From contig JAIEPU010000111.1 in the NCBI GenBank assembly GCA_019748235.1, positions 1,565 through 65,564 of the forward strand: DNA of 64,000 nucleotides, in the 5' to 3' direction. The DNA is from a bacterium (GTDB lineage: Bacteria > Planctomycetota > Planctomycetia > Kolteriales > Kolteriaceae). A model generated the notes under the pieces. That model had not been told where the DNA came from. It worked only from the letters and a program-made list of their open reading frames with translations, and ran no database searches. Below are positions 16,352 through 55,516 of the stretch, one piece after another; the stretch's first letter is position 1, and the number at the start of each line of letters is the position of its first letter. Both the position numbers and the translations under genes were made by a program.

Positions 16352-16369
16352 CGAGCGACGAGGGGAAAC

Positions 16370-18190: not shown

Positions 18191-18202
18191 AGGGGCACGA
18201 TC

Positions 18203-19457: not shown

Positions 19458-19485
19458 GGAACGCTGATCAGAGGACGACTACTTC

Positions 19486-21515: not shown

Positions 21516-21530
21516 GGCGGAACCAACATA

Positions 21531-24521: not shown

Positions 24522-24545
24522 AGGGAAGACTCACTGCTAACGGAT

Positions 24546-25526: not shown

Positions 25527-25567
25527 CGCTGGCTCCTCTGGAGACTGAATTCAACATCGACGCGACA

Positions 25568-28026: not shown

Positions 28027-28210
28027 TGCTTGCTCCTGTACCTGGGCAATCTAACTCAATGGCGCAATTGGGCAAGCGATGTTTCTTAGGCGACGTTGAC
28101 ACGTTTTCACAAGTCGGAGAGCTTACCACAGAGGAACTCGGCTGAACGTCCGCCGGCAAGATGGCGTCGCGCTTGAATTCGCTCCGCCTTAACTGGGTAG
28201 TCTTTTGCGA

Positions 28211-36354: not shown

Positions 36355-39300
36355 CTAAAGCTTCAGCGAATCGATGATGTCCTCATTCAAGTGAGCATCA
36401 TTGACCGTGTCGATTGTGGCCGTGGCGAGAATCCAATCCCCATCCGTGTCGCTTCCAGCGAAGACAGAATCGATCGCGTTATCCTCCAGCACGTTGGCCC
36501 CTTGATATCCAGATCCGCCCGGAATCAGGAATGTGAATGCATTGGCGCCGTCCAATCGCTTACCGAAAATCGAATCTCGCCGAACCGTGAAGGAACGATC
36601 GCTGACCCATTCTCGCTGGATGTTTTGGAACGCCGCGACGTCCAGGTTCGTCGTGTATCCCGCGATGACGAGATCACTCCCCGTGCCGCCCGAGACACTA
36701 TCTGATCCACCGCCGCTATAAATAACGTCATTCCCAGATCCACCGTCGATGGAATCATTTCCACCTTTGTCAACGGAAACACTCGGACTATCTCCAAATA
36801 GGAGATCATTACCGGCTCCGCCCAGAATGGTATCACCTGTCGGTCCCATTCCTTCCGATCCGTCAGCCATCACCGTATCGTCACCGTCGCCGGCATCGAT
36901 ATAGTCGCTTTCCCCTTCGCCGCCATCTCCGTCACCATAAATGACGTCATTCCCCGTTCCGCCGTAGATCGTATCTTTTCCAAGGCTGTTACGGGTGAGT
37001 GAGATTCCCTGTTTACTCGGTGCATCGCCGAAAATAACGTCTTGCCCTGCGCCACCGTCGATATTGTCATTGCCAAGTCCGCCCCAGATAGTGTCGTCAC
37101 CATCACTACCTAGGATGGTGTCATCGACATAACCGCCGAGAAGCGAATCGTTCCCCGTTCCTCCATCGATCGACACGGCCGTATAGCGAACATCCTTCGC
37201 ATTGATGAGGTCGTTACCGCCGTATCCATAGGCTTCGACATGGCCTGTAATGTTCGTGAACTGATAGGTTTGATTGACCGCAACGCCGTTCAAGATGGAG
37301 ACGAGCACCGTGATCGGACCACCCTTTGTATCTTGAGTGATCGTGATGTTATCCGTTCCATCTGAACCGACGATGATCAGGTCATTTGTCCCAGGGTCTT
37401 GTGGATTGGGATCCACAAAGATTCCCCCCACGAAAACCGCGGTCGATGCAACATCGCTGACTCCGCCATCCTTATCGGTCGCGGTGACATTCACGGTTTG
37501 CCAACCGGCCTCGTAGAAAATGTGCGATACGACAAGTCCGCTCGGTCCTACGACCGTTTCATCTGTGACGCCATCGCCGTTCCAGTCGATATCGAAGGTG
37601 AACAACGCGCTCTCATCGACAGTACTCGGATCAGTGGCGCTGAGCGTGATGGATTGCTGGATACCACCGACGACGACGCTTGGAGCATAGATAGTCGCGG
37701 TCGGCGCCAAATTGCCGACGTCAACAAGGAACGTGCGAATCGTCCGCAATCGTGAGTCAGAACTATCGACGGCTTCGATCGTAATCGGCATGAGGCCGTT
37801 GTAATTATCAGGGGGAGTCCACTTGAAAGCCCCGGTCTTGCTGTCGATCGTCGCCCCTGCTGGAGCAACGGCCAGATTGTAAGTGACGTTGCCTCCCACT
37901 CCCGATATCGATGAGACGCTGAATTGAACGGTGTTACCTTCACCGAGAACAGCCTGCGAGATGGCATTAATCACCGGTGCGCCGGCGGACCCGCTTTGAA
38001 TACCGCCCGTAATCAGCGTTCCCTCCGAATTGTTCTGGTACGACGGATCGCTCAGGAGCAAGAGAGCATAGGCTCTTCTTCCCGCAACGGTGTCACCGCC
38101 GTTCGCATTCACGAAATTCTTCCCCGCCGTGATATCAGAGGCCGACGGGGTTTCGAGAAGCACTTGACGGAAGGCATTCTCGACAAATGTATCAAGCGTT
38201 CCACCCGAATTCGTTCTAAAGTCGATGGACGCCAAAACGTCAGCTCGTGCCTCGTTCTCTGTCTCACCGCTCTTTAGCGATTGAACCAGAGCCTGAACCT
38301 TCGCCGGATCCACCTGACTCTTGCTGAGTTGCAAGTACTCGCGATAAATCGATTCCGCCAGTTGCGTGTAAATGTAATCGCTCGTCGTGACAACGGACTT
38401 CACCAAGTCGCGATCCGACAGATTGACACTTGCATTCAATTCCGTCGTCGTCGGAGTGCGACCAAGGAACTTGACGTAAGCCTGCGTCACCTGACTTTGC
38501 TTGAAGGCGAGCGATGCAAGGATACCGCCATCGGAATTGTTGGAGATAATCCAGCGACGACCACCCTCGAAGACATTTTGAACCTGGGCATTGAGCTGCG
38601 CGGTCGTGAGAGTCACTCCCGGCAGGAGGACGGCATACACGCGCTGGACGTAGCTCGTCACGGCCGCTCGATGAGCCGCGTTGTTGAAGTTGAGACTTAA
38701 ATCGGGCGGAAGCTGTGCAAACTCATCGCTCGTTAAGAGCGAGATACGAGCTTGGTTGAATGATCCCGTGGTGATGAACTGAGCACTATACGTCGCGATC
38801 TCTTGGGGAGTCGCGGCTCGGCCCAGAATGCTCTTCACCAGCGCGGAAGCAGCCCCGGTCGCGAACTCGGTCGATCCCACGATCGCCTGGGCCATCAACG
38901 GGAACGTCACCAGTGATTCGATCGGACTGAATTGATCAGTCGTTTCGTTCAACACGCCGTCACGGCCTAACAAATCATTGAACAGGCTGCTGACGTACGC
39001 TCGAGCAAACGTCGCACGTGGACCGATCAAGGACGACGCCGTGATGACTTGGCCGTACTCGTTCGTCACGGTGATCGTCAACGACTCGCCATTCAGATCG
39101 ACCGGAAGCAGCTTATTGAAGCTGAGCAATCCGCTCGCACTGACGAACAGTGTGGTATTGATCAGTTGGGTGCTCGCGCCCGAAGGATCGACCTTTGCGT
39201 CCACCGTTACGGTCAACTTGCTGAGAGGATCTCCCTGCAAATTGAAGCCGATATAAGTTTGTCCGCCAAAGTCGGAGAGCCCGAGGTTTGCAATAAAGAT

Positions 39301-42300
39301 ACCCTGCGGGATCGAGATCGGTCCTGGAGGAGTAAAGGATACGACGAACTCGGTCGTTCCCGATGCCCGATTGGGACGAAGCTGGTTACCTTGTGCGTCG
39401 AGAATTCCCGTGGCCGAATTGTCGAGCTTGATGTCGTATTGACCTGGCTGGAAATCAGATCCGACCGAAGCGATCGTGATGATATCCGTCGTCGGTTGAT
39501 AGACGAAGGCGTAGTCGACTCCCTGTTGAAGGAGGACGCCGTCGCGAGTAACGACAACCTTTGATGCAGTGACGGTCGAATCATTAATCGCGAAGCCGAC
39601 CTGTCCCAAGAGGATCTGGAACTGGTTGACCGCCGTCTGCGAATAGAACAGCACATTGTTCGGCGTCGGATCTTTGTCCTGGCTCGATCCATCGAGTGGA
39701 TCGACGAGCGAAGCAACCGGTCCAGGCGCCGCGATCGAGACAAAGAAGGTGGTCGTTCCATCCGCTTGATTCGGCTGCAAACGATTCCCCGCCAAATCCC
39801 GGATACCGGTGGCAAGGGTATTGTCGAGAACCACCTTGTAATCCGCGGGCACCTTCGTCAAATCCGTGAGCACGAGCGAGATCGTCGATGTGCCGGAGTT
39901 GTAGCTGAAGTTGTAATCGGTTCCGCGCACCAAGAGGACGCCGCCGCGGTATAGCTTCACGGTGGATGCCGTCACGGTCGAGGCATTGATGGCGGCGGCA
40001 TCTTGTTTGAGCAAGATATCGATCTTGGGCAATCCACTGGTGCTGACGACCTGAACGTGATTGGCCAGCGGATCATTGTCTGAAGAGCCGTTATCGAGCG
40101 GCGCGGAAACGACTCCAACCGGCCCCGCCAGTAACAGGTTCGCATTAAACGCGACGGTGCCGTTATTGCGGTTCGGTTGAATCGGATTGCCGTTATTATC
40201 GAGGATTCCGCCATCCTGAGTATTGTTGATCAGGATGGAGTATTGGCCGGGAACGAAGAGTTGGCCAACCGACGTCAGGCGAATCTTGTCCGTCGTTGAG
40301 TCATAACTGAAGACGTAATCCGATCCGAGCGTGAGCTGGACGCCATTCTTTAGCAGAGTGACCTTCGTTGCGTCGACCGTTGAATCCTTAATTCCACCGA
40401 CGCCACCAGCCAGCGTGACTTCCAGTGTCGTCAGACCCTGCGCTGTCTTCACGGTGACGTCGTTGGCGGCTGTATTCAAATCGCTTGGACCGCCATCCTG
40501 CGGCGCGGTGAGAACACCGGTCGGACCGGTGAGAACGATCGAGACGTTGAATACCGTCTTCTTGTCCGAGGTATTCGACTGTACCGGATTTCCCGCCTTG
40601 TCAAGGATACCGGTGGCAGAGTTGTTCAGTGCGATCTGATAAGTGCCCGCGCGGAACTGAGCTCCCGCCGAAGTGAGCACGATCACGTCACGGGCCAGGT
40701 CATACTTGAAGGTATAATCGACCCCTTGGACAAGGGTTTGACTTCCGAGCGTAAGCACCACGTCATTGGCGGCGATGCTTTGCTGATCGATCCCCGATCC
40801 CATGAGGTCAACCAAGCCGACTTCAAATTTCGACGTTCCGAATCCGGCAGTGATCGCCACGCTGCCGAGCGCGGAATTAGTGTCGCCCGGTCCGTTGTCT
40901 TGTGGTGTGACTAGGAATGCATAAGGACCGAGGAAGTCGGCACGTTCAATCGCACCACGATCCTTGAAGGTGTTGCTTCCAAGTCCTGGAGGAGACGTGA
41001 CGCTGGCATCATCGACCCGCTTCTGACCATTTCGGTCATCATCAGGCGCGACGATCGGCGACGGCGACATGCCGAGGGCCATCCGCACGTTCATGATGCC
41101 AATGCGGTCGTCGAGCGAATTATTCGCACTGTCGACGGCGAGATTAGGATTCGCGGCCGTCCCTGGACGAAGCTGGAAATTGCCTCGGGCGGCGTCGACG
41201 AAGATCGGGCTCGTGGTCGCCTGGATCAAATCATAATTTCCAAGAGCGCCCCCCTGCTTATTGGTGACGTTCCCCTGGAAAAGGTTCGAAAGTTCCTGGG
41301 TGGCGGACTGTGACGTGGCATCCACGCGAATTCCGGTCTGAGTGCTCGCGATGATGTTATTCATCAGGGTTGGAGCGGCACTGTTCAATACGTCGATGCC
41401 GATCCCTGTCGCGGTCACTCCTCCCCAGATCGAGTTATTCACGATGCGGCCGAACGGAATCGGAGAAAGAGGGCTGCCGTTCGCATTGACGACGCCGGCA
41501 AAGCGGATGCCCGCGTCGACAAAGTTCGAGATCACGTTGTTCGTGAGAACCGTTCCCGGAACTTGCCGCGTCGAATTGAGCCCCGGTACGTTCCGAATAC
41601 CGCCTGGAGCGGTGAGATCGGTGCTCGAATCGCGATCCGACAGCTTGACGTCAATACCAACTTGGGAAACGTTACTGATCGAGTTGTTCGTGATCAGAAT
41701 CATTCCCTGAAGCCGTTCGAGGTTGGAGTCGCCGAGTTCGCTGTAGAAGCCCGAACGTCCAAGCTCAACGCCGTAATGCTTGAAGATTCCCGCAGTGCCC
41801 AGAATGCTGAGGATGTCAACCTTGGCGGCGTTGAACAGGGTAACGATATTCGACTTCGGATTTGGCTGATTCCCCGACTTCTCGAGGTTCAGCGTCGTCG
41901 CGTTAACCTTCAAAACCTTGCCGAGCGTGACGACACTATTGATCGCGTTCGCGAGGGCGTCAGCGACTCGCGAATCGTCCATAGTGTCATCGATTTCGAC
42001 CTGAACACGACCGGCTCCGACGGCCACTCCCCGCCGCGCGAATTCGAAGCCAATGGTGTTGTAGCCATCCGAAATCGTGAAGCCGGTCCCATTGGCGATT
42101 TGATTTCCTGCCTTCAGGGCGATGCTCCAACCGTTCGACAACCGGTCATTGGTGTCGAAAGAAGTCGCGCCAGTGATGTCGAGAGGAGCAGGCTTTCCGG
42201 GAGGCGCCGCATTTTCGAGAGTGACTTTTCCGAACTCCGTGCCGCGGCGAATTTCGAGCTGATAAGCGCCGACGAGTTGAGGAACGGGATCATTGGGATT

Positions 42301-45300
42301 GGTGGATTTCGGCAATGTTTGGAAATCGGACGACTCACTTGTCGCGGTATTGGTCGCACGAGTCACCATCTCGCCCCGCTCAGCGAAGCCGATGATGATG
42401 TCGTCGATGAAAACGCCGCGGTGATTGTTGTTCTGTCCCTTTTCGATCGATTCGAAATTGCCGAATGCATCCCCCTCCAAGTACTCGGGGATGGTGCGAT
42501 CATTCAGATTCGTCATTCCCACTTGAGAAATCGAAACAAGATCGACATTCTGATTCTCAGACGGTGTAACCGAGTACTTGATGCCGAAATCTACAAGAGT
42601 GGAGGCAAAAAACACTGCTCTAGTGTTCCGAAGGCCGACGTTCAGCTCAACCGTATCTTTTGTCGCGAACTGAGAGCGATCGGCGATGGTCCCCAGATCA
42701 CCAATCGTCTGAGCCGTGTAGGTCTTGTTTGCTGAGTTGATGGCTGCCGCGATGGCAGCAGCGACGGCTGCGTTCGCCTGAGCGAGCGATCCATAGGAGG
42801 CGGCCACTTGCACCGCGGTAAATTCTGGCGAAACCGTACCCCCGACATCAACGAACTTGAAACTCGCCTGGCCTGTGCCATCCTGAAGCTGAGTAGTGAA
42901 AGTTGAACCCCACAATTTAGAAGTGTTCGTATCAAGCAAGTTGACTTTCATCTGTGCGGCTTGATCAGAATCGCCCGCCGTCGAGAAGTCAAACCTCAAC
43001 TTCAGATTGTCCATCCCCGCGAAGTCGCCGAGGTCAACTCGAACTTGTCGCCATCCTTGCTCATCAAACGTTTCTTGAATGCGTGCCTGCGAATCGTTCA
43101 ACGTATTGGTCAGGTTTTGATATTGGCCACCAGATTCGGTGTAGTGTCCTCCCAATTCTGATTTGCCGGTAGCCGTACCGAAATCAAGCGAGCGAGTGGA
43201 GTTATTCGTGGTTAATTCAAACCAATTAATTCCGTCATTGCTGATGTAGACGCGGAAGCTGTCTCTCATCGTATCCGCATTCGGAAGGTTATCCGTCTTC
43301 CCTGCAGCATTCTGTGTATCGAGATTGTAGTTAAAATAGAGCGTGGGTTTATCGAGCGCAGAGTAGCCCTTCAGGCTGAACGTATTGCTCGTCAACGATC
43401 CCGCGGCACCACCCGGCAAATTATAGGTATCGACGACGGCATCCCCGTTCGAACCCTGACCTCGGAAACGGTAGACGCTTGCGTTGAACATATTGACGAC
43501 AGCTTTGTCGCTATCTTTGAGATCAAGGCCAAATCGATAACTGGCAAGGCCGGCCGCATCATCAACCGCCTGAGTCAGCCCCGTAATTCGCGATCCGTCA
43601 TAGGTATCGTTTATGCCATGTCCTGGCGAAGTCGCTTCACGCAATGTTGGGTGCCAGAGATTGAAATCGAGTGTCGAGAAAGCGATGCCGTTGATGAGTG
43701 CTCCCGAGTTTGCAACATCGCCAATGGACTGCAATTTGACGCTCGATTTTCCACCAGCGAGGACGTTCGCCAGGACGGCCGTTGAGCCGGACACATCAAT
43801 GGCAAACATCCGACCATCGGTGGTCGTCGCGAAGAGAATCTTCGTGTACTTCCCTCCTTCCAGGTTGATCGGAGCACGGGTCAAGCTCTGGAATTCAAGG
43901 ACCTTGCTGCTGTCCGCCGGGTCGGCAAATTTCGTGAAGTTGCCCGATTTGCCGTCATTTCCATCGATCTGGATGATGTAGCCCTTATCCGTCGCCGCAT
44001 AGACCCGTTCCCCACCGCCAGCCGAACCATTGGCGGGATTGTAGTTCGGATAGACGGACGCAAGACCCCTTACAATACCGATTGTCTGGCCAGCGACTTC
44101 GATCGTACCTCGTGGTATGACAGTGGTTGAGAGAGGATCCACGGCTCCCGTATTGGGATTGGCCCAGTAGAACCGGTTGAGGTTATCGACATAGCGCAAT
44201 CTGAAGCCAGTGTTGTCGACGTCTGAAGGATCAAGTCCAAGGAAGGTCATCGCGGTGTAATCAGTGCCACCTAAAGTTTCACGAAGCGCAATACCGTCAT
44301 CACCGCGATTCGTCTTTCCCGCGTTCCCTGTATCAACGAGAACATAGTTGCCGGTTTGAGTGTCGTTGTTACCGCGGGTTTGAGTGAAGAGCAAACCGTC
44401 TGGACGCATGGCGATGTCATTGACCGACTGATTATTGAATGACAGGCTATTGTCACCAAAAGTCGTCTGCAGCGCGCCGGTGAACGGGTTGTACGTGAAG
44501 AGGGACGATCCACGCGACACGAAGAGGACGACATCCGACAGCGTGTAAGGGTTCGCGTTCGTGGCAACAGAATTCGGCGATCCCTGAATACTTCCGAAGA
44601 GAAGCTTTGAAGGATTCGTCGGAGCGCCGCTAGAACCACCACCACTCGGGCTAGTTAAGTAGTATCCCGCGTAACCGATGTGGTCTTCGACGACTCTTTT
44701 CATCGTGTTGACCGGTTCGAGGCGAACGAACGGGGTCGACGAATTGGCGTCATAGAACTGGCTGAGGACCTTCGGTGCGGTCGCCTTGGAGGAGACGGCG
44801 ACGTAATACGTCTGCGACGCGGAACCGACGCGGCCGGTAGGCAACTGGGCCGTGCCGATGTAGGCATCGTTCGCTCCGTAGGACCCGCCGTTCAGCGCAT
44901 TGGGGCTTCCCGCCGCATTCGTGCGATCGTCCGCGACGTTCGAATCATGTCCGACCAGGATCAAGTTCCCGTTCGCATCGAACACCGAAAGCGTCGTATC
45001 CGGACCGGTGATGCCGTCGGCATAATCGATGTCAAAGATGGCCGGCCAGCTCAAGCCGGCGGCATTCAGACCCGCGATCGTCTGAAGGAAATCGAAGTCG
45101 ACGGTGAACTGATACCAGTCGACGTCATTCAGGCTACTAAGGAAGCCTCCGACACTGATCGTGTTCCGATCAATGCCGAGCAAGTTGCCAAGCTTTTGGG
45201 CAGCTCCAAGCGAGTCGTTCTGTCCTGTTTGGCCCGGAGCTTCCTTGTCGGCCGCCTCTCCGGTGAGCGGAGAATGCAACGGCTGGCCAGCGACCGTGAT

Positions 45301-48300
45301 GCCATTTGTCGCGTAACGGATGTCGGCATATTGGATCGTCGTGCCGGGCTTCTGATCCACCTGCTGAAGACGGATATTGAGCTGATACTCACCTCGGCTG
45401 AGACCGGTTTGAGGATCGTTGATGTTCGACATCGTCGCGGTCGTCTGCGGATTCGAGCGGATTCGAACGTAGTAATCGAGCCGCTGACCGGACTGTCCGG
45501 GAAGGACAAGCCGCATCCCCGGATCTTTCGCATTGATCGAGTAGAAGTCATAGTTGTTCGCAGGATCTCCGCCGAGCGATGCATCCTTATCCATCGTCTG
45601 CGGGCCTGAGTTCGCGGGGAGCTGGAAGTTCTGATAAAGGCTCGATCCGTTCCCTTGCGATCGGGCGAGCACGCTCCCATTCACGTCGACGAGTTCCACG
45701 ATCGCATCGAGCGCGTACCGGGTCATGTCCACGTCGATCCAAACTTCACTTCCGGCCACGCCGCTGAATCGATAAACATCAGCATCGGTCGGGCTGTCGT
45801 AAGCAATGGAACCGTGGACTTGGAAGCCAAGCCGTGACGTATCGTCACCCGATTGAATATTGGCGGCGAGGTTCCCCAGGTACTCCGCCTTCGCCGGGGT
45901 GTTATTCGAGTTGGAAGTCCCGACGTAGGGCTTTTCCTTTTCGTAATAGATCGCGACATTGGTGTCGTTCGCATACTGCGTGACGTCGATGCTTCGCCAA
46001 TCACCGGCTGATGGAGCGGCACCGTTTCCGTTGATGAAGCTTCCGTCGTTATTGGTGTCGGTAACGACGTTGCCCTTCAAATCCAAACCCGCGCCGACGG
46101 AATCGTCCTTCAGCGAGGTCATGATGACTGAATACTTCGTCGATCCAAGGATATAAAGCGATCCGCCGATCCGGTCGTTGATGTCGATCGGCGTTCCCGT
46201 CACCGTGATGCCGGCTTCACCTAGCGCGGGCGAGGAGAGTAGCTTCACGACCAGACTTGCCGACTCACTGCTCTTCAGCATCAGGCCGTTATAAACGTGA
46301 AGGTTCGGGATGACGATTTCGTTCAGGACGATGTGAACGATATCCGTGTCGTCCCAGATGGTCTCGGTCGTCAGCGTCGCGCCGCGCACCACCATGCCGT
46401 TCAGGGCATTGCTCTGCAGGAAGTTTCCGCGAACGAGGGCGCCGTGATTGTCGTTGTACTGCGTGTAGGCGCTGGCAAAACCGGTGCTTCTGCCGGAATC
46501 ACCCTGCACCACCGTGGACATGGCGTCGGCATTGATGCTGACGGCTGGGCCGAGATTGTTCTGGAACGTGTTGGCAACGATGACGGGCTGCGCGTACTGG
46601 GTGTAAATGACACCTGAAGAGGTGACGCCCTTACCGTCGCGGTTCGGATCTTGATTGCTCGCCGACCCACCCCCCGCATTGAATCCGAAATAGCTATTGG
46701 CAATGCGGACCTTCGCCTGATGAATCTCGACCGCGTTGAACGTCGAGGACTTGCCGGTGATGTCTGACGCCCCACCCGCGTAAGTCATGCGCACATTGTC
46801 GAGTGAGCCGGACGAAGTCGGGCTGAAATAGACACCCGCCCAGTTCGCGGGAGCCGGCTTCGAATTCGAGTGATCACTCGTCGTGTCGAATGTTCCGCCG
46901 GCACCGTAGGTATCGTCCGCGACCGACGTCATGATGATCGGACGATCCGCCGTTCCCTCGGCAAGGAGAAGTGCCCCCATCTCCGCTTCAATGCGTGTAT
47001 TCGTGAACTTGAGGATAGCACCTGGATCGATGACGAGGCTGCCGGCGACCTTCGCCTTCACGCCGGAGATGAAGTACTTAATAGGGCCAAGTGCGACGGT
47101 GACGGTCGTATCGAGGTACGCGATCTTCTTCGCGCCGTCGTAGGAAAGAATCTTCGCCCTCGGGCCGGTCGTGCCGCCGAGCGTGATCGTCAGGCCGGTA
47201 TACTCCTCATCGTTCGATGAAGCTCCATCGTCGAGGATGACGTAATTCGGAGCGGCCATCTTCGCGACCGACCAATTTTTCACATCCGCGGAAAACGCCG
47301 TCGTGTAGTTGTAAAGGTTGCCCGCGGCCTGCGAGAGCAGAATGTTCTCGCCGATTACGTAGACCATGTCGAGCGTGCTGAAATGAGCGAAGCCGGTGAA
47401 TTCCTTGGTAGAGCCATCGACCGGAGTGATCGTCCGAACGAACAGGCCGTTGAAGCTGTTATCGTTGACGATGTTGCCGTGAATGTCGATTCCCTTGCGG
47501 CTGTAATCGACATTGAATGACTCGTACTTGCCGTAATCGGTCTCATTGAATGAGTCAGGGTCCGCGGAAATGGCGGCGCCGGCGTTGTTGACAATGATGT
47601 TATTCGTGATGGTTGGACGAACCCCTTCGACCGTGATCACGTCACGCTGAATGGGATTGCCGGTGTCGTTGACCGTTCCACCGCCGTAGGAAAGTGTCGC
47701 CTGGTTGACGTAGTTGAGGAAGATCCCCTGCTTCTCATAGTCCGCGCTCGAGCCGAAGACGACCCCGCCCCAATCCCCCGTGAAGGGATTGCTGACCGAG
47801 TTCGGCGCATCGCCCCCGACGGAATCATTATTGAGAGAAGTCAGAACGACGCGCGCATTCGGCGTACCGAGAATCTGTAGCGCGGCTCCACTTCGGTCGA
47901 CGTTGACGAGCGAATCACCGACGGTGATATTCGCCCCCGCCAGCTTGATGATCGTCCCTTGGTCAACCATCACGGTCACGCCCTGAGGAACGACGAGTTG
48001 GTTCCCGTCTGCACTTCCCTCCGCGATGATGTAGGGAGTGTTATCTTGAACGGTGCTGATATTGCCGTCCGTTCCGCCGTTCCCCTCGATGCGAACAATG
48101 TTCGGCGTCGTCAAGAGAGCGCTGCTCCCCGACAAGTCGATCGTGGGAGCATTCCCTGAGACGGTCGGAGCCAATGAAAGAATCGCCCCCGTAGCGTTGG
48201 CGCTCACACCAAAACCGGAAACGCCATTGATCGCGTTCGCGATCTTTGTGGCCAATTGAAGTGAAGTATCAGACGTGGCGAAGAGGATGCGTCGGCGCCC

Positions 48301-50520
48301 GAGCGAATCGGTCGCGGGATCGGCACCATTCGTGGTGAAGTAGAACGTGGCGACCTGCGTCGTCCCGTTATTCACACTGAAGTAATCGCCGACCTTAATG
48401 AAAGCGCCGCCCGAGGCCGGCACGACGATTCGTCGGCTAGCCGCCAGCAATCCATCTGCAATGTTTTGGTAAGGGGTCGCAGCCGAACCATTCCCTCCGG
48501 CAGAGGCCACCTTGTCGACATAGATGGTGGAACCTGACTGAAACCAGAAATCGAAATCGCCACCAGCTTTGCCGTCAGAATCTCCGTCGAGGGCGAGACC
48601 GTTCACGCCGGTCATCACGCTATTTTTCGCGAGGGGATCGAAATCGATGCGAAGATCGTATGTTCCTTCGGTCGTTCCTCCCATGCCACTGTCGTCGATG
48701 CGGCCGTCGAAGTCAGTATTCCCGGTGCTGGTGACGGCGACGTAATAAGTCCCCGCCGCGAGCCCGCTGAGCTGAACGTAAGAGTCCTTGCCGTAGTAGT
48801 TGTCGTTCCTTGCGACGAGCTTGTAGTCCTGATCGTAGACGCTGATGACGGTGTCGAGCGAGCTTGCCGATCCCGATAAGCGCTGCGCGATGGTCTGGAC
48901 CGTCAGCGTACCCACGGCGCCGACTTGAAACGAATAAAAGTCGATGTCGCGGCTTTCCGGACGGAAAAGAACCTGCCCGTGCAGAATGGCCGCCGGGTCA
49001 GGGAACGCCGCCTCGAACGGCGCGGTCGATGTCGGAACGAGGCTGTCTCCCGCTTGCCCCATCACGTTGGGACTCGGGAGATCAGAAGCATGAAGCAATC
49101 CGATCGAATGACCGATCTCGTGCATGGCGGTGTTGAACCACGCGCCACCGAACTCACTCGCGCCCCAGTTTTGGGCGCTATTCATGATGGCAAGTCCCTT
49201 TCCCGCGATACCGCCGACCCCCGCAGGAGGTACAGTCGGATCCGCAGCGCGTGGATCACCTGTTACGACGACAATGTTTCCGCCGGACGCTACCTCAGTA
49301 AACGTGATGCCGAGGTAGTACCCATAGAGATCGAAGATCTGCCGGGCGCGAACCTTTTGAGTCTCGGTGATTTGATTGATGAGCGGAATGCCGTTGATGT
49401 CGGTTCCATAATTCGGGTCGAATGAGTAGGTGAGATTTTCGATCCCGGCGCTGCCATCTTGTCCGCCGACGTACCCCTCGTGTGATCCACCCGAGTCAAC
49501 GACGCGCGTGCCGGGGTAATCGTTCGTTCCGGGGAACGAAAGGTTATAAGCGGGAACATCCGATGCTTGGATGTTCTGCCCCTTGATGAGAATGCTCGTT
49601 TGTACGCCCGCTGAGCCACCGAGATTTCCCAGACTGCTGGCGTTTGAGAACATCTCTCCCGGATCGGTGATGACATTCACCGTGGTCGGTGTTGAGATCA
49701 AGGGATCGTTGTTGCCGACGCGGAGGCGGTACGTTCCCTCAGTGATCGGCGTGCTGAAGCTTAGCGTCGCCATTCGGCGAGTGGCATCGTACGTGACGCT
49801 GAGTGGATTCGACTGATTGACGAGCACGTCATCGGTCGTGTCGAGCGTTCCCTTAGTGTTGATGAGCTGATACAACTCGGACTTCGTCGCCACCGACGCG
49901 GCGATGTCTTGGTTGAAGTAAACCTGAATCTGGTTGTTCTGCGGATTCAGCGTCCCCCCGCTTCGCGTGACCGGTTGCGGTACCACGGCCAAAATTTCGA
50001 GCGGCGTTCGCACCTGGAATGTGAAGGTTTGGTTTACCCCCTTGTTAAACGCTTCTTGAGCGGTGTTGCGGAGCGCGGAGATCCCGGCGCCGACGATTTG
50101 AATCTGGTAGTTGTCCTGACCAAGCCCGCCGTCGAAGCGCGCGACGACTTCGTTTGATGTCTTGCCGAGCCCGATGTAAGCCGGGGTGATCGTCTTGTCG
50201 TTGCCGTTCCCGAAGATATTGTCGCCGCCCGAGCCGATGAACTGAATGCCGCCGAGCGTGGTGGGATCGATTACTTGATTCTGGTCGAAATCGATAATGA
50301 CTTCGCGCGCGGCTTGATTGTAGATGTCGCCATTATGGAAGACCACGCTATCAATCAGGATCTGACTCACGGCCGGACCGGTCATCACCAGTCGGCTTTC
50401 GAGCGGTTCCAGTAAATATCCGCCACGCCGTATTTTGGACCATATCGTTGACTTAGGAGAGCGGCTTTTCCGAACGCTCATTCCTCGATCGCGACGTGAA
50501 AAAAGGGACCAAGTCGCCAT
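36355..50520 (-). CDS. Giant 4,721-aa multidomain secreted/cell-surface protein. It combines a metzincin-type Zn-peptidase module with PPC, parallel beta-helix, Ig-like tandem repeat, DUF4214-like, PKD and RTX Ca-binding regions.
   Basis: Uninterrupted 14,166-nt ORF. The ATG at 50520 has AGGAGA 6 nt upstream. Domain reading of the translation is given in the findings. My residue count was verified against nucleotide landmarks at aa 467, 3198 and 4431. Confidence 0.9.
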   Translation of the reverse strand: MATWSLFSRRDRGMSVRKSRSPKSTIWSKIRRGGYLLEPLESRLVMTGPAVSQILIDSVVFHNGDIYNQAAREVIIDFDQNQVIDPTTLGGIQFIGSGGDNIFGNGNDKTITPAYIGLGKTSNEVVARFDGGLGQDNYQIQIVGAGISALRNTAQEAFNKGVNQTFTFQVRTPLEILAVVPQPVTRSGGTLNPQNNQIQVYFNQDIAASVATKSELYQLINTKGTLDTTDDVLVNQSNPLSVTYDATRRMATLSFSTPITEGTYRLRVGNNDPLISTPTTVNVITDPGEMFSNASSLGNLGGSAGVQTSILIKGQNIQASDVPAYNLSFPGTNDYPGTRVVDSGGSHEGYVGGQDGSAGIENLTYSFDPNYGTDINGIPLINQITETQKVRARQIFDLYGYYLGITFTEVASGGNIVVVTGDPRAADPTVPPAGVGGIAGKGLAIMNSAQNWGASEFGGAWFNTAMHEIGHSIGLLHASDLPSPNVMGQAGDSLVPTSTAPFEAAFPDPAAILHGQVLFRPESRDIDFYSFQVGAVGTLTVQTIAQRLSGSASSLDTVISVYDQDYKLVARNDNYYGKDSYVQLSGLAAGTYYVAVTSTGNTDFDGRIDDSGMGGTTEGTYDLRIDFDPLAKNSVMTGVNGLALDGDSDGKAGGDFDFWFQSGSTIYVDKVASAGGNGSAATPYQNIADGLLAASRRIVVPASGGAFIKVGDYFSVNNGTTQVATFYFTTNGADPATDSLGRRRILFATSDTSLQLATKIANAINGVSGFGVSANATGAILSLAPTVSGNAPTIDLSGSSALLTTPNIVRIEGNGGTDGNISTVQDNTPYIIAEGSADGNQLVVPQGVTVMVDQGTIIKLAGANITVGDSLVNVDRSGAALQILGTPNARVVLTSLNNDSVGGDAPNSVSNPFTGDWGGVVFGSSADYEKQGIFLNYVNQATLSYGGGTVNDTGNPIQRDVITVEGVRPTITNNIIVNNAGAAISADPDSFNETDYGKYESFNVDYSRKGIDIHGNIVNDNSFNGLFVRTITPVDGSTKEFTGFAHFSTLDMVYVIGENILLSQAAGNLYNYTTAFSADVKNWSVAKMAAPNYVILDDGASSNDEEYTGLTITLGGTTGPRAKILSYDGAKKIAYLDTTVTVALGPIKYFISGVKAKVAGSLVIDPGAILKFTNTRIEAEMGALLLAEGTADRPIIMTSVADDTYGAGGTFDTTSDHSNSKPAPANWAGVYFSPTSSGSLDNVRMTYAGGASDITGKSSTFNAVEIHQAKVRIANSYFGFNAGGGSASNQDPNRDGKGVTSSGVIYTQYAQPVIVANTFQNNLGPAVSINADAMSTVVQGDSGRSTGFASAYTQYNDNHGALVRGNFLQSNALNGMVVRGATLTTETIWDDTDIVHIVLNEIVIPNLHVYNGLMLKSSESASLVVKLLSSPALGEAGITVTGTPIDINDRIGGSLYILGSTKYSVIMTSLKDDSVGAGLDLKGNVVTDTNNDGSFINGNGAAPSAGDWRSIDVTQYANDTNVAIYYEKEKPYVGTSNSNNTPAKAEYLGNLAANIQSGDDTSRLGFQVHGSIAYDSPTDADVYRFSGVAGSEVWIDVDMTRYALDAIVELVDVNGSVLARSQGNGSSLYQNFQLPANSGPQTMDKDASLGGDPANNYDFYSINAKDPGMRLVLPGQSGQRLDYYVRIRSNPQTTATMSNINDPQTGLSRGEYQLNIRLQQVDQKPGTTIQYADIRYATNGITVAGQPLHSPLTGEAADKEAPGQTGQNDSLGAAQKLGNLLGIDRNTISVGGFLSSLNDVDWYQFTVDFDFLQTIAGLNAAGLSWPAIFDIDYADGITGPDTTLSVFDANGNLILVGHDSNVADDRTNAAGSPNALNGGSYGANDAYIGTAQLPTGRVGSASQTYYVAVSSKATAPKVLSQFYDANSSTPFVRLEPVNTMKRVVEDHIGYAGYYLTSPSGGGSSGAPTNPSKLLFGSIQGSPNSVATNANPYTLSDVVLFVSRGSSLFTYNPFTGALQTTFGDNSLSFNNQSVNDIAMRPDGLLFTQTRGNNDTQTGNYVLVDTGNAGKTNRGDDGIALRETLGGTDYTAMTFLGLDPSDVDNTGFRLRYVDNLNRFYWANPNTGAVDPLSTTVIPRGTIEVAGQTIGIVRGLASVYPNYNPANGSAGGGERVYAATDKGYIIQIDGNDGKSGNFTKFADPADSSKVLEFQSLTRAPINLEGGKYTKILFATTTDGRMFAIDVSGSTAVLANVLAGGKSSVKLQSIGDVANSGALINGIAFSTLDFNLWHPTLREATSPGHGINDTYDGSRITGLTQAVDDAAGLASYRFGLDLKDSDKAVVNMFNASVYRFRGQGSNGDAVVDTYNLPGGAAGSLTSNTFSLKGYSALDKPTLYFNYNLDTQNAAGKTDNLPNADTMRDSFRVYISNDGINWFELTTNNSTRSLDFGTATGKSELGGHYTESGGQYQNLTNTLNDSQARIQETFDEQGWRQVRVDLGDFAGMDNLKLRFDFSTAGDSDQAAQMKVNLLDTNTSKLWGSTFTTQLQDGTGQASFKFVDVGGTVSPEFTAVQVAASYGSLAQANAAVAAAIAAAINSANKTYTAQTIGDLGTIADRSQFATKDTVELNVGLRNTRAVFFASTLVDFGIKYSVTPSENQNVDLVSISQVGMTNLNDRTIPEYLEGDAFGNFESIEKGQNNNHRGVFIDDIIIGFAERGEMVTRATNTATSESSDFQTLPKSTNPNDPVPQLVGAYQLEIRRGTEFGKVTLENAAPPGKPAPLDITGATSFDTNDRLSNGWSIALKAGNQIANGTGFTISDGYNTIGFEFARRGVAVGAGRVQVEIDDTMDDSRVADALANAINSVVTLGKVLKVNATTLNLEKSGNQPNPKSNIVTLFNAAKVDILSILGTAGIFKHYGVELGRSGFYSELGDSNLERLQGMILITNNSISNVSQVGIDVKLSDRDSSTDLTAPGGIRNVPGLNSTRQVPGTVLTNNVISNFVDAGIRFAGVVNANGSPLSPIPFGRIVNNSIWGGVTATGIGIDVLNSAAPTLMNNIIASTQTGIRVDATSQSATQELSNLFQGNVTNKQGGALGNYDLIQATTSPIFVDAARGNFQLRPGTAANPNLAVDSANNSLDDRIGIMNVRMALGMSPSPIVAPDDDRNGQKRVDDASVTSPPGLGSNTFKDRGAIERADFLGPYAFLVTPQDNGPGDTNSALGSVAITAGFGTSKFEVGLVDLMGSGIDQQSIAANDVVLTLGSQTLVQGVDYTFKYDLARDVIVLTSAGAQFRAGTYQIALNNSATGILDKAGNPVQSNTSDKKTVFNVSIVLTGPTGVLTAPQDGGPSDLNTAANDVTVKTAQGLTTLEVTLAGGVGGIKDSTVDATKVTLLKNGVQLTLGSDYVFSYDSTTDKIRLTSVGQLFVPGQYSILINNTQDGGILDNNGNPIQPNRNNGTVAFNANLLLAGPVGVVSAPLDNGSSDNDPLANHVQVVSTSGLPKIDILLKQDAAAINASTVTASTVKLYRGGVLLVRGTDYNFSYNSGTSTISLVLTDLTKVPADYKVVLDNTLATGIRDLAGNRLQPNQADGTTTFFVSIAAPGPVASLVDPLDGSSQDKDPTPNNVLFYSQTAVNQFQILLGQVGFAINDSTVTASKVVVTRDGVLLQQGVDYAFVYQPTTDIITIASVGSDFQPGQYDIKLDNSATGILDAQGNQLRPNRASGTTEFVVSFTPPGPISIPQGIFIANLGLSDFGGQTYIGFNLQGDPLSKLTVTVDAKVDPSGASTQLINTTLFVSASGLLSFNKLLPVDLNGESLTITVTNEYGQVITASSLIGPRATFARAYVSSLFNDLLGRDGVLNETTDQFSPIESLVTFPLMAQAIVGSTEFATGAASALVKSILGRAATPQEIATYSAQFITTGSFNQARISLLTSDEFAQLPPDLSLNFNNAAHRAAVTSYVQRVYAVLLPGVTLTTAQLNAQVQNVFEGGRRWIISNNSDGGILASLAFKQSQVTQAYVKFLGRTPTTTELNASVNLSDRDLVKSVVTTSDYIYTQLAESIYREYLQLSKSQVDPAKVQALVQSLKSGETENEARADVLASIDFRTNSGGTLDTFVENAFRQVLLETPSASDITAGKNFVNANGGDTVAGRRAYALLLLSDPSYQNNSEGTLITGGIQSGSAGAPVINAISQAVLGEGNTVQFSVSSISGVGGNVTYNLAVAPAGATIDSKTGAFKWTPPDNYNGLMPITIEAVDSSDSRLRTIRTFLVDVGNLAPTATIYAPSVVVGGIQQSITLSATDPSTVDESALFTFDIDWNGDGVTDETVVGPSGLVVSHIFYEAGWQTVNVTATDKDGGVSDVASTAVFVGGIFVDPNPQDPGTNDLIIVGSDGTDNITITQDTKGGPITVLVSILNGVAVNQTYQFTNITGHVEAYGYGGNDLINAKDVRYTAVSIDGGTGNDSLLGGYVDDTILGSDGDDTIWGGLGNDNIDGGAGQDVIFGDAPSKQGISLTRNSLGKDTIYGGTGNDVIYGDGDGGEGESDYIDAGDGDDTVMADGSEGMGPTGDTILGGAGNDLLFGDSPSVSVDKGGNDSIDGGSGNDVIYSGGGSDSVSGGTGSDLVIAGYTTNLDVAAFQNIQREWVSDRSFTVRRDSIFGKRLDGANAFTFLIPGGSGYQGANVLEDNAIDSVFAGSDTDGDWILATATIDTVNDAHLNEDIIDSLKL
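36661..37230 (-). repeat. RTX-type Ca-binding nonapeptide repeat block (aa 4431-4620 of the giant protein)
   Basis: At least a dozen GGxGxD-type units: GGNDLINA, GGTGNDSLL, GSDGDDTIW, GGLGNDNID, GGAGQDVIF, GGTGNDVIY, GDGDDTVMA, GGAGNDLLF, GGNDSID, GGSGNDVIY, GGGSDSVS, GGTGSDLVI. Confidence 0.85.
38041..39009 (-). repeat. About six degenerate DUF4214-like units (aa ~3838-4160 of the giant protein)
   Basis: Recurrent units of about 50 aa: FARAYVSSLFNDLLGRDG...GSTEFA; ALVKSILGRAATPQEIATY...LLTSDEFA; VTQAYVKFLGRTPTTTEL...; FVENAFRQVLLETPSASDI...LLSDPSY. They resemble the fV..lY...LgR.p....l......S.EF pattern. Confidence 0.5.
39325..40929 (-). repeat. Four tandem 134/134/134/133-aa Ig-like repeats (aa 3198-3732 of the giant protein)
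   Basis: Each unit begins GP(Y/T/V)(A/G)..(V/T/S/D)(T/A/D)P(Q/L)D(N/G)G.SD. Each contains (V/T)D(Y)xF(S/K/V)Y(D/N/Q)...I.L(T/A)S.G..F.PG.Y.I.L(N/D)N(S/T)..GILD..GN.(L/I/V)QPN. The period is 402 nt and the repeats have diverged at the DNA level. Confidence 0.85.
48631..48963 (-). other. Pre-peptidase C-terminal (PPC)-like domain following the peptidase module (aa ~520-630)
   Basis: RDIDFYSFQVGAVGTLTVQTIA...LDTVISVYDQDYKLVARNDNY...GTYYVAVTSTGN...GTYDLRIDF matches the D.D.Y.F........D..l.lyd..g......d......l..GtYy..V pattern. Confidence 0.55.
49090..49122 (-). other. Metzincin zinc-binding motif HEIGHSIGLLH (aa 467-477 of the giant protein)
   Basis: Read directly from the reverse complement of 49090-49122, which is cac gag atc ggt cat tcg atc gga ttg ctt cat. 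It fits HExxHxxGxxH. A candidate Met-turn (NVMG, M487) lies 10 residues after the third His. Confidence 0.7.
50383..50412 (-). other. N-terminal LEPLESRLVM motif after a highly basic, non-hydrophobic leader (aa 37-46)
   Basis: aa 1-36 contain 10 Arg/Lys and no hydrophobic h-region. They are followed by LEPLESRLVMTG. Confidence 0.5.
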
Positions 50521-50526: not shown

Positions 50527-50532
50527 TCTCCT
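50527..50532 (-). promoter_or_regulatory. Shine-Dalgarno sequence of the giant gene
   Basis: The minus strand reads AGGAGA-gtttga-ATG. Confidence 0.6.
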
Positions 50533-53527: not shown

Positions 53528-53962
53528 GGCGGCCTCGTCTCTTTCCACTTTGGTAACGATCGATGCTCAGACCAAACCCTCATCCGGGTAGAAGCGAGAA
53601 GTCTGCGAACCGGACGGAAAAGATCATTAATTCTCCACAGCCTCTTCATCGTTAAACGGGATCCGTCCGTCGTGGTGTAGGGTTATGGGCGGCGAACTCG
53701 ATAGGTTAAACGATGGTTCAAGCCATCCCCGTATCTTCCGCAATCTCCTCAAATCTCGCAGTCCAAGCAAATCCGGCAGAACCCGAACAATTGCTTTAGC
53801 CCGACCATCTTGCCAGCCGATCAATCATGACAAGCGGAACGAGCATCCGTCGCGCGTGGGCATTGCAGGGAGATTCAACCCTCCCCTGGCTCATGAACGA
53901 TGGAAGGGATCGATCGCGGGCCTCATTTGATCTGTCCGCGATTTCGTCAAAGGAAGTGCATT

Positions 53963-55516
53963 ATGGCGCAGGGAAGCCGCCTTGCTCGGTGGGCTTATAG
54001 ACTCCTCGGTCCTGCCGTGATGGTACTCGGCGTGGGATGGACGTTGGCGTCGGTAAAGGCGGACAACCTTCTCATTTGGGAGGGGAACGGCGATACCACG
54101 CTGCCGACCGTCATGCAGTCGGAGCTCGAGGCGGTCCCGGCCGAGAGCCAGCCTCAGCAGAAAACGAGCAACTCCATCGTCGAACCGACTCCCGTCGACG
54201 ATCAAAACTTCGCCGGCGAAATCGTCGATCCCTCGTCATCGATCGGAGCGATCAGCCAGCAGGGAGGCCAACAAATCGGCCTCGGCTCACTGGGAAATAT
54301 GTCGGTCTACGGCGGTGGTGGTGGAGTTGGTGCACGACTGTTTGGCAACTACGGAACGGGTTTCATTCGTGACGTCAGCGCGGGGGTCTTCGGCAATCCG
54401 AACCAAACGGTCTATAACGGCGGTACGACGCTCAAGCTCTTCGAGACCGACGGGGCCGTCCTCATGACCCGCGGACTTTTCGGCGTGGTCAATGATTCCT
54501 ATCTGGGCCAATCAAACTTCACTTATTCGGTCGACAGCTATGCCAGCCTTCGTCTTCGTAGCTACGGCGGGGCAGAGCATTGGCTCAAATTCGGTGGTTT
54601 CGTGGATGATCAGAACCACTTTGGCAAAGCCGGCCCGATGTTCGGTGCCCTGCTCTTTGCCAACGAGAGATTCCCAGTCACTTTCGACGGAGCGGTCGGA
54701 TTCGGTTATGGTAGCCCCATTGATCAATTCCCCGCCACGACGAATGTGATCAGCGTGGCCGCTCGCGACTATCAACTCCGCGTCGGTACTTATCTCGCTC
54801 CACGACTTCAAGTTGGTATGTCCAGCATGATTGCCGACTGGGGTAGCGGACCAGACAACCGAAATTGGGGACTAGGTGCATTCACGAACTTTTACCTCTT
54901 CAACCGAACGATGGTTCGCCTCGACTTCACCAGCGGCGACGCCGGGTTCCGCGGCTATGCCATGCTTTCCTACCTGTTCGGACCTGGCCCGTCGGTCCAG
55001 ACCGATGGACTTTGTCGCGTCGACGGCAAGGATTGGGCGATGCAGCCGGTCAATCGCGATGTAGCCGTACAGCTCAAGGAGAGAAACGTCCCCTTCGCCG
55101 ATCGCTTGAACGTAACGGCGACAGTGATTTCTCCACCACGGCAAGCACTCTGCACGGGTAACCCGAACGGTATCGTCGAAGCGGGCGAATGCTTCGAATT
55201 GAATCTCGCTGTTCAGAACCCAACGACGGTGGCGGTTTCGAACGTGAGCGTGGGACAAAGTCCGTCGACGAGTGGAAGTGCGGGAGCTTCACCGCAGGGT
55301 ATCAGCGGCGCCACCTTCCCGAACCTCCCCGCTGGGGGCACGGTGCAGACGGATCAGCTCACCGATATCAACATCAATGTGCCAGGATCTGCCGCAAGCG
55401 GCTCGACGATCTTCGTCACATTTGATTTGACCGTCGACAATGTTACCCGTCGCATGACGGTCGGCCCCATCGTCGTCGGCCAAACGACGACCGGCACCAG
55501 CTATGCTGCGAATTAA
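53963..55516 (+). CDS. Secreted hypothetical protein: putative beta-barrel-like central region plus a C-terminal Ig/CARDB-like domain
   Basis: Signal peptide (LLGPAVMVLGVGWTLASVKA-DN). The Gly/aromatic-rich alternating segments (YQLRVGTYLAPRLQVGMSSMI, WGLGAFTNFYLFNRTMVRLDF, GFRGYAMLSYLF) suggest amphipathic strands. The C-terminal part (GECFELNLAVQNPTTVAVSNVSV...) looks CARDB-like. Confidence 0.45.
   Translation: MAQGSRLARWAYRLLGPAVMVLGVGWTLASVKADNLLIWEGNGDTTLPTVMQSELEAVPAESQPQQKTSNSIVEPTPVDDQNFAGEIVDPSSSIGAISQQGGQQIGLGSLGNMSVYGGGGGVGARLFGNYGTGFIRDVSAGVFGNPNQTVYNGGTTLKLFETDGAVLMTRGLFGVVNDSYLGQSNFTYSVDSYASLRLRSYGGAEHWLKFGGFVDDQNHFGKAGPMFGALLFANERFPVTFDGAVGFGYGSPIDQFPATTNVISVAARDYQLRVGTYLAPRLQVGMSSMIADWGSGPDNRNWGLGAFTNFYLFNRTMVRLDFTSGDAGFRGYAMLSYLFGPGPSVQTDGLCRVDGKDWAMQPVNRDVAVQLKERNVPFADRLNVTATVISPPRQALCTGNPNGIVEAGECFELNLAVQNPTTVAVSNVSVGQSPSTSGSAGASPQGISGATFPNLPAGGTVQTDQLTDININVPGSAASGSTIFVTFDLTVDNVTRRMTVGPIVVGQTTTGTSYAAN

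Follow-up and report, generated by a model that had tools for sequence, protein, structure and literature searches.

The 64-kb window analysed here, by which we mean the whole stretch of planctomycete DNA under study (contig JAIEPU010000111.1), carries on its minus strand a giant gene whose product would span 4,721 amino acids (aa). Judged from alignments with its relatives, this gene belongs to a widespread, uncharacterised family of the Planctomycetota, defined by a collinear core of about 3,300 residues. The best explanation, to which we give a probability of about 0.62, is that it encodes an exported giant surface protein of this core family, a modular fibre combining binding modules, a metzincin peptidase and an add-on C-terminus. 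The gene is a vertically inherited planctomycete one, with a predicted cell-surface or extracellular product. An earlier note, made from the letters of this DNA, had described a single gene for a multi-domain protease/adhesin-like protein; that reading holds, and about 11 of its 15 domain assignments survive profile or fold tests. The same note had considered the combination of domains unusual. It is not, as the collinear core recurs in most of the 81 loci compared and nearly all of 392 matching stretches are labelled Planctomycetota; the giant gene is ordinary for its phylum.

The giant open reading frame (ORF) is an intact, real gene, under purifying selection in three assemblies. Its coordinates, strand, ATG start, preceding AGGAG and intact copies elsewhere all agree with the single 14.2-kb gene proposed earlier, and no frameshift or stop was found to split it. 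Taking about 4% stop codons, the chance of an open frame of 4,721 codons is about e^-190. The protein is identical to NCBI entry MBX9653939.1, labelled 'putative Ig domain-containing protein [bacterium]', and intact full-length relatives are present in two separate assemblies, one from Logan (L082; 4,717 aa, 93.7% identity) and one from JGI (4,674 aa, 91.9% identity). Compared with the Logan relative, the whole gene has a ratio of nonsynonymous to synonymous substitution rates (dN/dS, Nei-Gojobori) of 0.115, and 17 of the 19 segments defined have values of 0.02-0.16; in the leader segment dN=0 and dS=0.17, and in aa 2521-2690 dS is saturated and the ratio undefined. The GC content of the gene (53-58%) is the same as that of the remainder of the window. 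Promoter and terminator scans at both ends of the gene gave background-level signals only.

Several observations could be taken to mean that the long ORF results from mis-assembly or chimerism, or that it is a pseudogene in decay: the source contig is metagenome-assembled, one relative (L001) is frameshifted, and aa 2400-2700 diverge abruptly between strains. We nevertheless rejected this reading, to which we assign a negligible probability. An assembly artefact is ruled out because two independent assemblies hold intact copies, 92-94% identical, so that the uninterrupted ORF is found alike in three independent assemblies; furthermore, dN/dS stays at 0.02-0.16 wherever it can be computed, synteny is kept, out to a 6.9-Mb contig, and dozens of relatives are uninterrupted ORFs of 3,500-6,600 aa with a stop at either end. 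Nor are the four internal repeats a hazard for assembly, since their protein sequences are only 36-46% identical, too divergent to be mis-assembled.

The extent of the family was established by scanning 185,579 species genomes with two conserved beta-sandwich peptides as queries, which gave 392 confirmed stretches, nearly all of them labelled Planctomycetota. Loci were fetched for the best 80 of these 392, and 81 loci were compared, the whole protein being aligned by tblastn. Among the 185,579 GTDB species representatives, the best match to the giant protein had 46% identity. In most of the 81 loci, giant ORFs align collinearly with residues 1 to ~3330: per 100-aa bin, 13-81 loci align over this part, with many gaps explained by contig ends, the two bins of aa 2500-2700 aligning in 18 and 13 loci and the remaining bins to ~3330 in 29-81. 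In aa 3800-4721, 0-1 of the 81 loci align. The order of the core is leader, Big_5-like immunoglobulin (Ig) modules, matrixin-like zinc peptidase, PPC, two beta-helix units, two PPC-like modules, beta-propeller, beta-sandwich, third beta-helix and one or more Big_5 repeats. Only the C-terminal ~950 aa are specific to this lineage.

Relatives bounded by stops include proteins of 6,588, 6,092, 5,886 and 5,220 aa, one of 5,119 aa from a Gimesia bin and one of 4,994 aa from Fuerstiella, and further family frames, up to ~7,000 aa, extend beyond the fetched stretch. L001, the frameshifted relative, comes from a 1.7-Mb contig; it is collinear and has dockerin repeats at its end. The core architecture occurs in many genomes of Planctomycetia type, sometimes as two copies, which in some genomes lie on a single contig (L025 and L037). 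The orthologues P0084 (5,113 aa) and P0089 (5,321 aa) extend over the full length, C-terminal part included, at 44-54% identity, and these share the gene neighbourhood of the window. The relatives are labelled as Planctomycetota or subordinate taxa with the exception of a few oddly labelled bins (Chitinophaga, Gammaproteobacteria), which are probably mis-binned. No Pfam or NCBIfam model covers about 2,000 residues of the family core.

The N-terminal leader, which the earlier note had called basic, is indeed basic and also carries the planctomycete LExLExRxLL motif of the PF07595 type (...RRGGYLLEPLESRLVMTG around the motif). This motif was found in 16 of 16 N-terminal relatives, at an identical position and without a hydrophobic core in any of them; one relative, P0057, is annotated with PF07595. 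In the literature LExLExRxLL counts as an export signal specific to planctomycetes, and it is present in 8 of the 10 longest proteins of Tuwongella (T. immobilis) (PMC8567305). The following aa 50-290 are probably Ig-like, as had been proposed from the sequence; the support comes through the relatives, of which 6 of 20 match Big_5 and 7 of 20 CopC, the window sequence itself having no Pfam match here and a weak similarity to the 134-aa repeat described below (hhalign probability 54%, E=1e-4).

The metzincin placed by the earlier note at aa ~330-500 was recovered by motif and, mainly through the relatives, by profile. HEIGHSIGLLH (aa 467-477, 49090-49122) is the sole HExxH in the giant protein, and the Met-turn methionine M487 (NVMG, 49060-49062) lies 10 residues past the third His. 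HExxHxxGxxH with a VMG or IMG Met-turn is conserved in 33 of 41 relatives. A profile of 33 relatives matches the catalytic domains of the matrix metalloproteinases (MMPs) MMP-12 and MMP-1 with E=2e-9 over ~100 residues that include the active-site helix and the Met-turn, the VMG/IMG column of the family aligning with the 'AVMFP' Met-turn of MMP-12. Peptidase_M10 is matched by all 33 (E<=0.01, best 1.5e-10); for the giant protein itself Reprolysin_3 gives 23.6 bits, against a Pfam gathering threshold (GA) of 22.4. Some relatives are named 'matrixin family metalloprotease' by NCBI. With zinc ligands, catalytic Glu and Met-turn intact, the domain is presumably catalytically competent.

Two other features of this region vary within the family. 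About 120 residues before the zinc site, relatives share a PGGxDEPGHRD..ExH motif that is degenerate here (NDYPGTRV..GSHEG; aa ~330-350, 49400-49530) and could act as a switch element or as part of a propeptide. A subtilase (S8) domain stands alongside M10 or replaces it in some proteins related over the beta-helix region (P0035, P0036), and the enzymatic 'head' of the scaffold therefore varies. The first PPC domain, after the peptidase, agrees with the earlier assignment: aa 526-598 score 26.7 bits when a 341-aa segment is searched (GA 25.9) and 25.4 bits in a 650-aa segment, and the domain is found in 25 of 33 relatives.

A beta-helix had been proposed at aa ~800-1520, and the fold is supported by modelling and structural comparison; the region is, however, better described as two tandem units, as aa 838-1100 and 1160-1476 are an internal duplication of two homologous units. 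An AlphaFold2 model covering both, made from a 25-row alignment, shows a short-strand beta-helix ladder for each (mean predicted local distance difference test score, pLDDT, 73.5; predicted template-modelling score, pTM, 0.72), and the top 50 Foldseek matches of the model of aa 640-1540 are all right-handed parallel beta-helix proteins, among them GH136, GH110, chondroitinase B, PL6 (alginate) lyases, Ag43, PfbA, Hbp, AlgE4 and tailspikes. Pfam Beta_helix was found in only 3 of 34 relatives for the aa 800-1520 region, and profile searches of the PDB gave nothing for aa 640-1160 and only a non-significant match (E=0.3) for aa 1160-1540. The model thus supports a beta-helix at the level of fold and gives no information on activity; of the lyase-like or glycan-binding character suggested in the earlier note for the beta-helices, nothing was found past the fold class. 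The helix unit at aa ~2935-3130, which had been counted as the second and is now the third, matches Beta_helix in 32 of 35 relatives (best 7.5e-8), NosD in 22 of 35 and DUF5123 in 19 of 35; the window's own scores here are 17-22 bits, under GA.

Two further PPC-like modules had been read after the first pair of helix units. The one at aa 1545-1720 is homologous to the first PPC domain (hhalign probability 95.9%, E=5.6e-9), and the other is probable. The segment spanning the two matches PPC in 15 of 35 relatives, which does not resolve them separately, and a PDB profile search with aa 1540-1950 found nothing. The next region, aa ~1987-2300, had been left unassigned and is predicted to be a beta-propeller: the AlphaFold2 model consists of repeated four-strand blades (pLDDT 70-94), Foldseek relates it to WD40/YncE propellers (E~1e-6), and DUF4394 is matched by 10 of 35 relatives.

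The beta-sandwich that follows is the most conserved part of the family (aa 2300-2520), with invariant DFNLWH.T, GHG, NLPGGA.G.L, P.LYFNY, an Asp-box and WRQ.R.DL...RFDF.T; its strands were modelled by AlphaFold2 with mixed confidence. Two jelly-roll-like modules had been proposed here. In 50 of 62 relatives, 35-55 aa separate RFDFST from FYIDDIIV, which belongs to the conserved strand FYIDDIIV.FAERGE; in the giant protein the distance is 194 aa. Because of this difference we take the two 'jelly-rolls' to be, most likely, a single beta-sandwich into which ~150 aa have been inserted. The insertion holds one of three copies of a module of ~80 aa that the earlier note had overlooked. A hidden Markov model (HMM) built from the family alignment covering the third copy (A13) detects all three; their pattern is G.tFtI.DG..t.tFEFd....V.f....t...vA..i..AIN....v.A. 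In AlphaFold2 copy 1 has the order beta-beta-beta-beta-alpha-beta-beta, and its segment is missing in many relatives. Up to 12 copies occur in relatives (the module was seen in L031, L058, L046 and L065). The module has no Pfam or NCBIfam match, and a PDB profile search with aa 2680-2930 found nothing.

This part of the gene also differs between strains. Over aa 2400-2700, identity to orthologues that are elsewhere 97-100% identical (L082, P0117 and P0118 being compared) drops to 62-71%, with dS saturated; across the same residues the two strains other than that of the window differ from each other by no more than 0-4% (96-100% identity). Smaller divergent patches lie at aa 401-500 and 2101-2200. 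The sequence pattern suggests that the beta-sandwich/insert region (aa 2300-2900, window ~41800-43600) may have been exchanged between strains by recombination.

After the third helix come the four 134-aa repeats recognised in the earlier note. Their pairwise identity is 36-46%, with E-values down to 1e-34; Big_5 is matched by 8 of 35 relatives in this region, and relatives hold at least one copy. From here to the end the assignments are of unequal strength. The DUF4214-like repeats proposed at aa ~3838-4160 could not be upheld, as the scores (18.3-20.2 bits here, 22.5 in the orthologue P0083) all stay under the GA of 23.2. The cadherin/He_PIG-like Ig domain is well matched, and the PKD assignment is close to threshold, PKD_4 (PF18911) with 26.2 bits (E=8e-6) being 0.8 bit short of its GA of 27 and PKD (PF00801) reaching 17.8 of 23.5 bits. 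The RTX block stands as proposed, with nine GxGxD motifs in aa 4454-4616 and matches in the PDB to the RTX blocks of CyaA and serralysin (E=4e-10). It was the only part to match in a PDB sequence search with the whole protein, and from NCBIfam came only RTX-containing families and a DVUA0089/PPC-like match below threshold.

What the earlier note had called 'a tail' is a conserved C-terminal domain. When the last 111 residues were used as the query of an exhaustive HMMER search, 33 representative clusters matched (E<=1e-3); for 31 of these, the matching stretch is at or close to the C-terminus, in proteins that range from 97 to 5,707 aa. According to BLAST, what is shared usually comprises PKD and RTX as well as the tail, about the last 450 residues (aa ~4270-4721, window 36358-37713). 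The same cassette stands at the C-terminus of a CBM60+GH10 xylanase (P0096/L085), of an S8+PPC peptidase (P0100/L086) and of a CARDB/PPC giant protein (P0092/L084), and most full-length cassette carriers also begin with an LExLExRxLL leader. We regard it as a portable calcium-binding, retention or sorting module of planctomycete exoproteins, and not as proof of type I secretion. The positions of all features are collected in Table 1.

Table 1. Features of the giant gene and its product, in order along the protein (window coordinates).
Feature	Residues (aa)	Window position	Strand	Basis or remark
Giant coding sequence	1-4721	36355..50520	minus	ATG start, 4,721 codons + stop, 14.2 kb, no internal stop
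Shine-Dalgarno-like AGGAG		50528..50532	minus	8-12 nt 5' of ATG, read from sequence
Leader	1-47	50380..50520	minus	basic stretch, then LLEPLESRLVM (aa 36-46), no hydrophobic h-region
Two Big_5-like Ig modules (probable)	~50-290	49651..50373	minus	via relatives
Matrixin-like M10 metzincin catalytic domain	~330-500	49021..49533	minus	motif and family profile
First PPC domain	~520-630	48631..48963	minus	PPC profile (PF04151)
~80-aa alpha/beta module, copy 1	696-776	48193..48435	minus	HMM, independent E-value (iE) 6e-14
Right-handed beta-helix unit 1 (predicted)	~800-1100	47221..48123	minus	internal duplication, AlphaFold2, Foldseek
Right-handed beta-helix unit 2 (predicted)	~1160-1520	45961..47043	minus	keeps family motif WDDTDIVH
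Second PPC-type module	~1545-1720	45361..45888	minus	homologous to first PPC
Third PPC-like module (probable)	~1765-1915	44776..45228	minus	pattern VDWYQF...YYVAVSS
Beta-propeller, DUF4394-like (predicted)	~1987-2300	43621..44562	minus	AlphaFold2, Foldseek, relatives
Beta-sandwich, main part	~2300-2520	42961..43623	minus	DFNLWHPT, GHGI, YNLPGGAxGSL, KPTLYFNY, Asp-box SNDGINW, WRQVRVDL...RFDFST
Insertion inside beta-sandwich	2521-2689	42454..42960	minus	lineage-specific; holds module copy 2; most strain-divergent stretch
~80-aa module, copy 2	2538-2600	42721..42909	minus	HMM iE 1e-6; inside beta-sandwich insertion
Beta-sandwich, closing strands (GVFIDDIIIGFAERGE)	~2690-2720	42361..42453	minus	family alignment
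~80-aa module, copy 3	2786-2895	41836..42165	minus	HMM iE 6e-32; conserved in family
Third right-handed beta-helix (Beta_helix/NosD type)	~2935-3130	41131..41718	minus	relatives' profiles
Four tandem 134-aa Big_5-like Ig repeats	3198-3737	39310..40929	minus	self-comparison
DUF4214-like region (weak)	~3838-4160	38041..39009	minus	sub-threshold profile
He_PIG Ig domain (PF05345)	4181-4257	37750..37980	minus	37.7 bits, GA 24
PKD-like domain	4270-4362	37435..37713	minus	near-threshold profile
RTX nonapeptide block	~4431-4620	36661..37230	minus	HemolysinCabind 65.3 bits
C-terminal domain	4621-4721	36358..36660	minus	...QREWVSDRS...VLEDNAIDSVFAG.D.DGDW...NEDIIDSL

The composition of the protein bears on its export. 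There is no cysteine among its 4,721 residues; in 57 relatives of at least 3,000 aa the median is 0.02%, with none at all in 21, and the other proteins of the window have 0.95%. Cysteine avoidance is a family-wide property. The composition of the giant protein is also acidic. On the indirect basis of the N-terminal motif, the near absence of cysteine, the acidity and the calcium-binding repeats, the protein is almost certainly exported. The route taken is speculative. Both ends of the chain are conserved, the N-terminus as a planctomycete leader and the C-terminus as a domain. The principal rival explanation makes the protein a substrate of a type I secretion system (T1SS), of the RTX-adhesin or serralysin kind, in which RTX block and tail would be the signal and the chain would leave C-terminus first through an ATP-binding cassette (ABC) transporter, membrane fusion protein (MFP) and TolC, to fold outside on Ca2+. 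The RTX block with its CyaA and serralysin matches, the zero cysteine, the acidity and the position of the tail at or near the C-terminal end would all fit such a route. However, no T1SS operon is found among the ORFs scanned in the window, where the sole ABC protein adjoins LpxB and is MsbA-like and the HlyD-type protein is paired with AcrB, and no T1SS genes adjoin the genes of the xylanase, the S8 peptidase and the CARDB/PPC protein that bear the same cassette. Furthermore, RTX and tail are missing in 80-81 of the 81 family loci while the family is equally cysteine-free, cassette proteins have an N-terminal leader that a T1SS substrate does not need, and the tail is a conserved 100-aa domain, T1SS signals being usually poorly conserved. 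We consider type I secretion unlikely.

A main role in polysaccharide degradation is more doubtful still. One or more of the beta-helices would then be active lyases or hydrolases of the PL6, GH136 or GH110-like kind, and the remainder carbohydrate-binding modules or spacers. The closest structural neighbours of aa 640-1540 do include chondroitinase B, PL6 alginate lyases and GH136/GH110, the third helix matches Beta_helix, NosD and DUF5123, the helix units have conserved acidic and His motifs (WDDTDIVH), and the C-terminal cassette also decorates a GH10 xylanase. Yet these structural resemblances are at fold level and extend to the non-enzymatic adhesins Ag43, PfbA and Hbp, no Pfam, NCBIfam or PDB sequence match leads to any carbohydrate-active enzyme (CAZyme) family, and catalytic residues could not be mapped. 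The most likely role, in our view, is that of an exported surface fibre, an adhesin or an enzyme scaffold. Such a protein would extend from the envelope as a long modular fibre, whose beta-helix, propeller and beta-sandwich modules, to judge by the families involved, may bind polymeric substrates or surfaces. The N-terminal metzincin might cleave proteins at the distal end or might process the giant protein itself, a choice on which we can only speculate. The C-terminal ~950 aa (DUF4214-like, He_PIG, PKD, RTX and tail) would be the lineage-specific add-on, of which the last ~450 aa may serve calcium-dependent folding and retention or sorting at the envelope, and, more speculatively, the anchoring of the chain.

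Some results weigh against this preferred explanation. The Foldseek matches of the beta-helices are weak (best E=3e-4, template-modelling scores 0.1-0.33, 6-12% identity), the beta-sandwich has no Pfam or PDB relative (PDB profile matches of aa 2290-2530 have E>=0.3), the PF07595 model of Pfam gave no match to the window's leader at E<=0.01, and the window's own Peptidase_M10 score is 21.0 bits, under the GA of 24. The zinc motif is lost in 8 of 41 relatives (L025, L031, L037, L040, L060, L065, L066 and L076, with MREIGR, FQMIGR, LRQIGI and the like in its place), including both family copies on contig PBSM01000188.1; these relatives would be pseudo-peptidase paralogues, and catalysis may be dispensable in some. 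Finally, when 455 flanking ORFs were clustered without bias, none of the clusters extended to more than 12 loci, and no hint of a pathway emerged.

Dextran-binding fibres are known to emanate from the crateriform structures of planctomycetes (Boedeker et al. 2017, PMC5394234). One might conjecture, and we regard it as a long shot, that the core family provides the protein of such polymer-binding fibres, that the variable beta-sandwich insert sets ligand specificity, and that leader and PKD-RTX-tail cassette mark a planctomycete-specific route of export and anchoring distinct from Sec, T1SS and the type IX secretion system (T9SS).

The neighbourhood of the giant gene is conserved only within the clade of the full-length orthologues. 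Downstream on the same strand lie a PSCyt1/PSCyt2/PSD1 gene and a DUF1501 gene, a hallmark planctomycete gene pair, then PMT_2, two GT9 heptosyltransferases and a Kdo transferase; upstream and divergent are a PhoPQ-related gene and then tsf and rpsB. As it is surrounded by envelope-biogenesis genes, the giant gene is not in a genomic island. Positions 14050-29290 form a lipopolysaccharide (LPS)/lipid A region with LpxB, an MsbA-like ABC exporter, two PMT_2 genes, two GT9 genes and the Kdo transferase, and an AcrB/MFP efflux pair lies at 4486-9188. A 538-aa ORF at 53900-55516 (plus strand) has no Pfam match; its syntenic counterpart in L082 and L083 is a 517-aa gene, also without one, and no counterpart lies beside any of the 81 distant family loci. 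No conserved partner gene emerged: the PhoPQ-related, PSD1, DUF1501 and PMT_2 genes and the 538-aa ORF recur in at most one of the 81 loci.

The gene is already deposited and is typical of planctomycete giant surface-protein genes, and it is the family-level picture that is useful. A family core that is nearly cysteine-free and has an intact matrixin-type active site is a defined target for work on planctomycete fibres, attachment and polymer capture, and two unnamed modules, the ~80-aa alpha/beta module and the ~100-aa C-terminal domain, are supplied for domain databases.

We found no description in the literature of the ~3,300-aa collinear core as a family. The closest known kind of protein is the giant surface protein with a PF07595 leader (Planc_extracel, RRLxxExLExRxLLA; Studholme et al. 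2004, as cited in PMC8567305). Giant planctomycete genes have been predicted to encode adhesins or extracellular hydrolases (PMC5177795), and the giant proteins listed for Stieleria varia include a 'Matrixin' of 6,858 aa (PMC7717043). The protein described here shares with the PF07595-leader giants the planctomycete context, a basic N-terminus with LExLExRxLL and no hydrophobic core, a length above 4,000 aa and a mixture of Ig, PKD, calcium-binding and beta-helix modules; it differs from them in its conserved housekeeping neighbourhood, which is not a genomic island.

The likeness to other known proteins is restricted to parts of the chain. Like the matrixins (M10), it has HEIGHSIGLLH, an 'ASD' past the third His that resembles the 'HSSD' of MMPs, and a Met-turn 10 residues on; unlike them, it has no haemopexin domain and no cysteine-switch propeptide, the latter because it has no Cys, and its catalytic domain is embedded in a chain of 4,721 aa, at a distance of about 330 aa from the N-terminus. 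Serralysins form M10B, and in them the RTX block follows directly after the protease; here it is 3,900 aa away, and neither the Pro past the third His nor the SxMSY tyrosine is present. We rejected the reading as a serralysin-like protease-RTX unit on account of the 3,900 residues between the parts and of the many relatives, the majority, without RTX. The giant RTX adhesins (LapA, MpIBP, SiiE, FrhA) are similar in size, tandem Ig repeats, C-terminal RTX, near-zero cysteine and acidity, but our protein is without a LapA-type N-terminal retention module, a LapG site or adjacent T1SS genes, its bulk consists of non-repetitive enzyme-like and binding-like domains, and most family members have no RTX. 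Finally, the predicted fold of aa 800-1520 and the Beta_helix/NosD signal of aa 2935-3130 recall the parallel beta-helix proteins (PL6, GH136, AlgE epimerases, Ag43/PfbA, tailspikes); this resemblance is one of fold, with no CAZy or autotransporter family membership and no identifiable catalytic residues, and it is in planctomycete context, leader, size and mixture of modules that the giant protein comes closest to a known kind, the PF07595-leader surface proteins.

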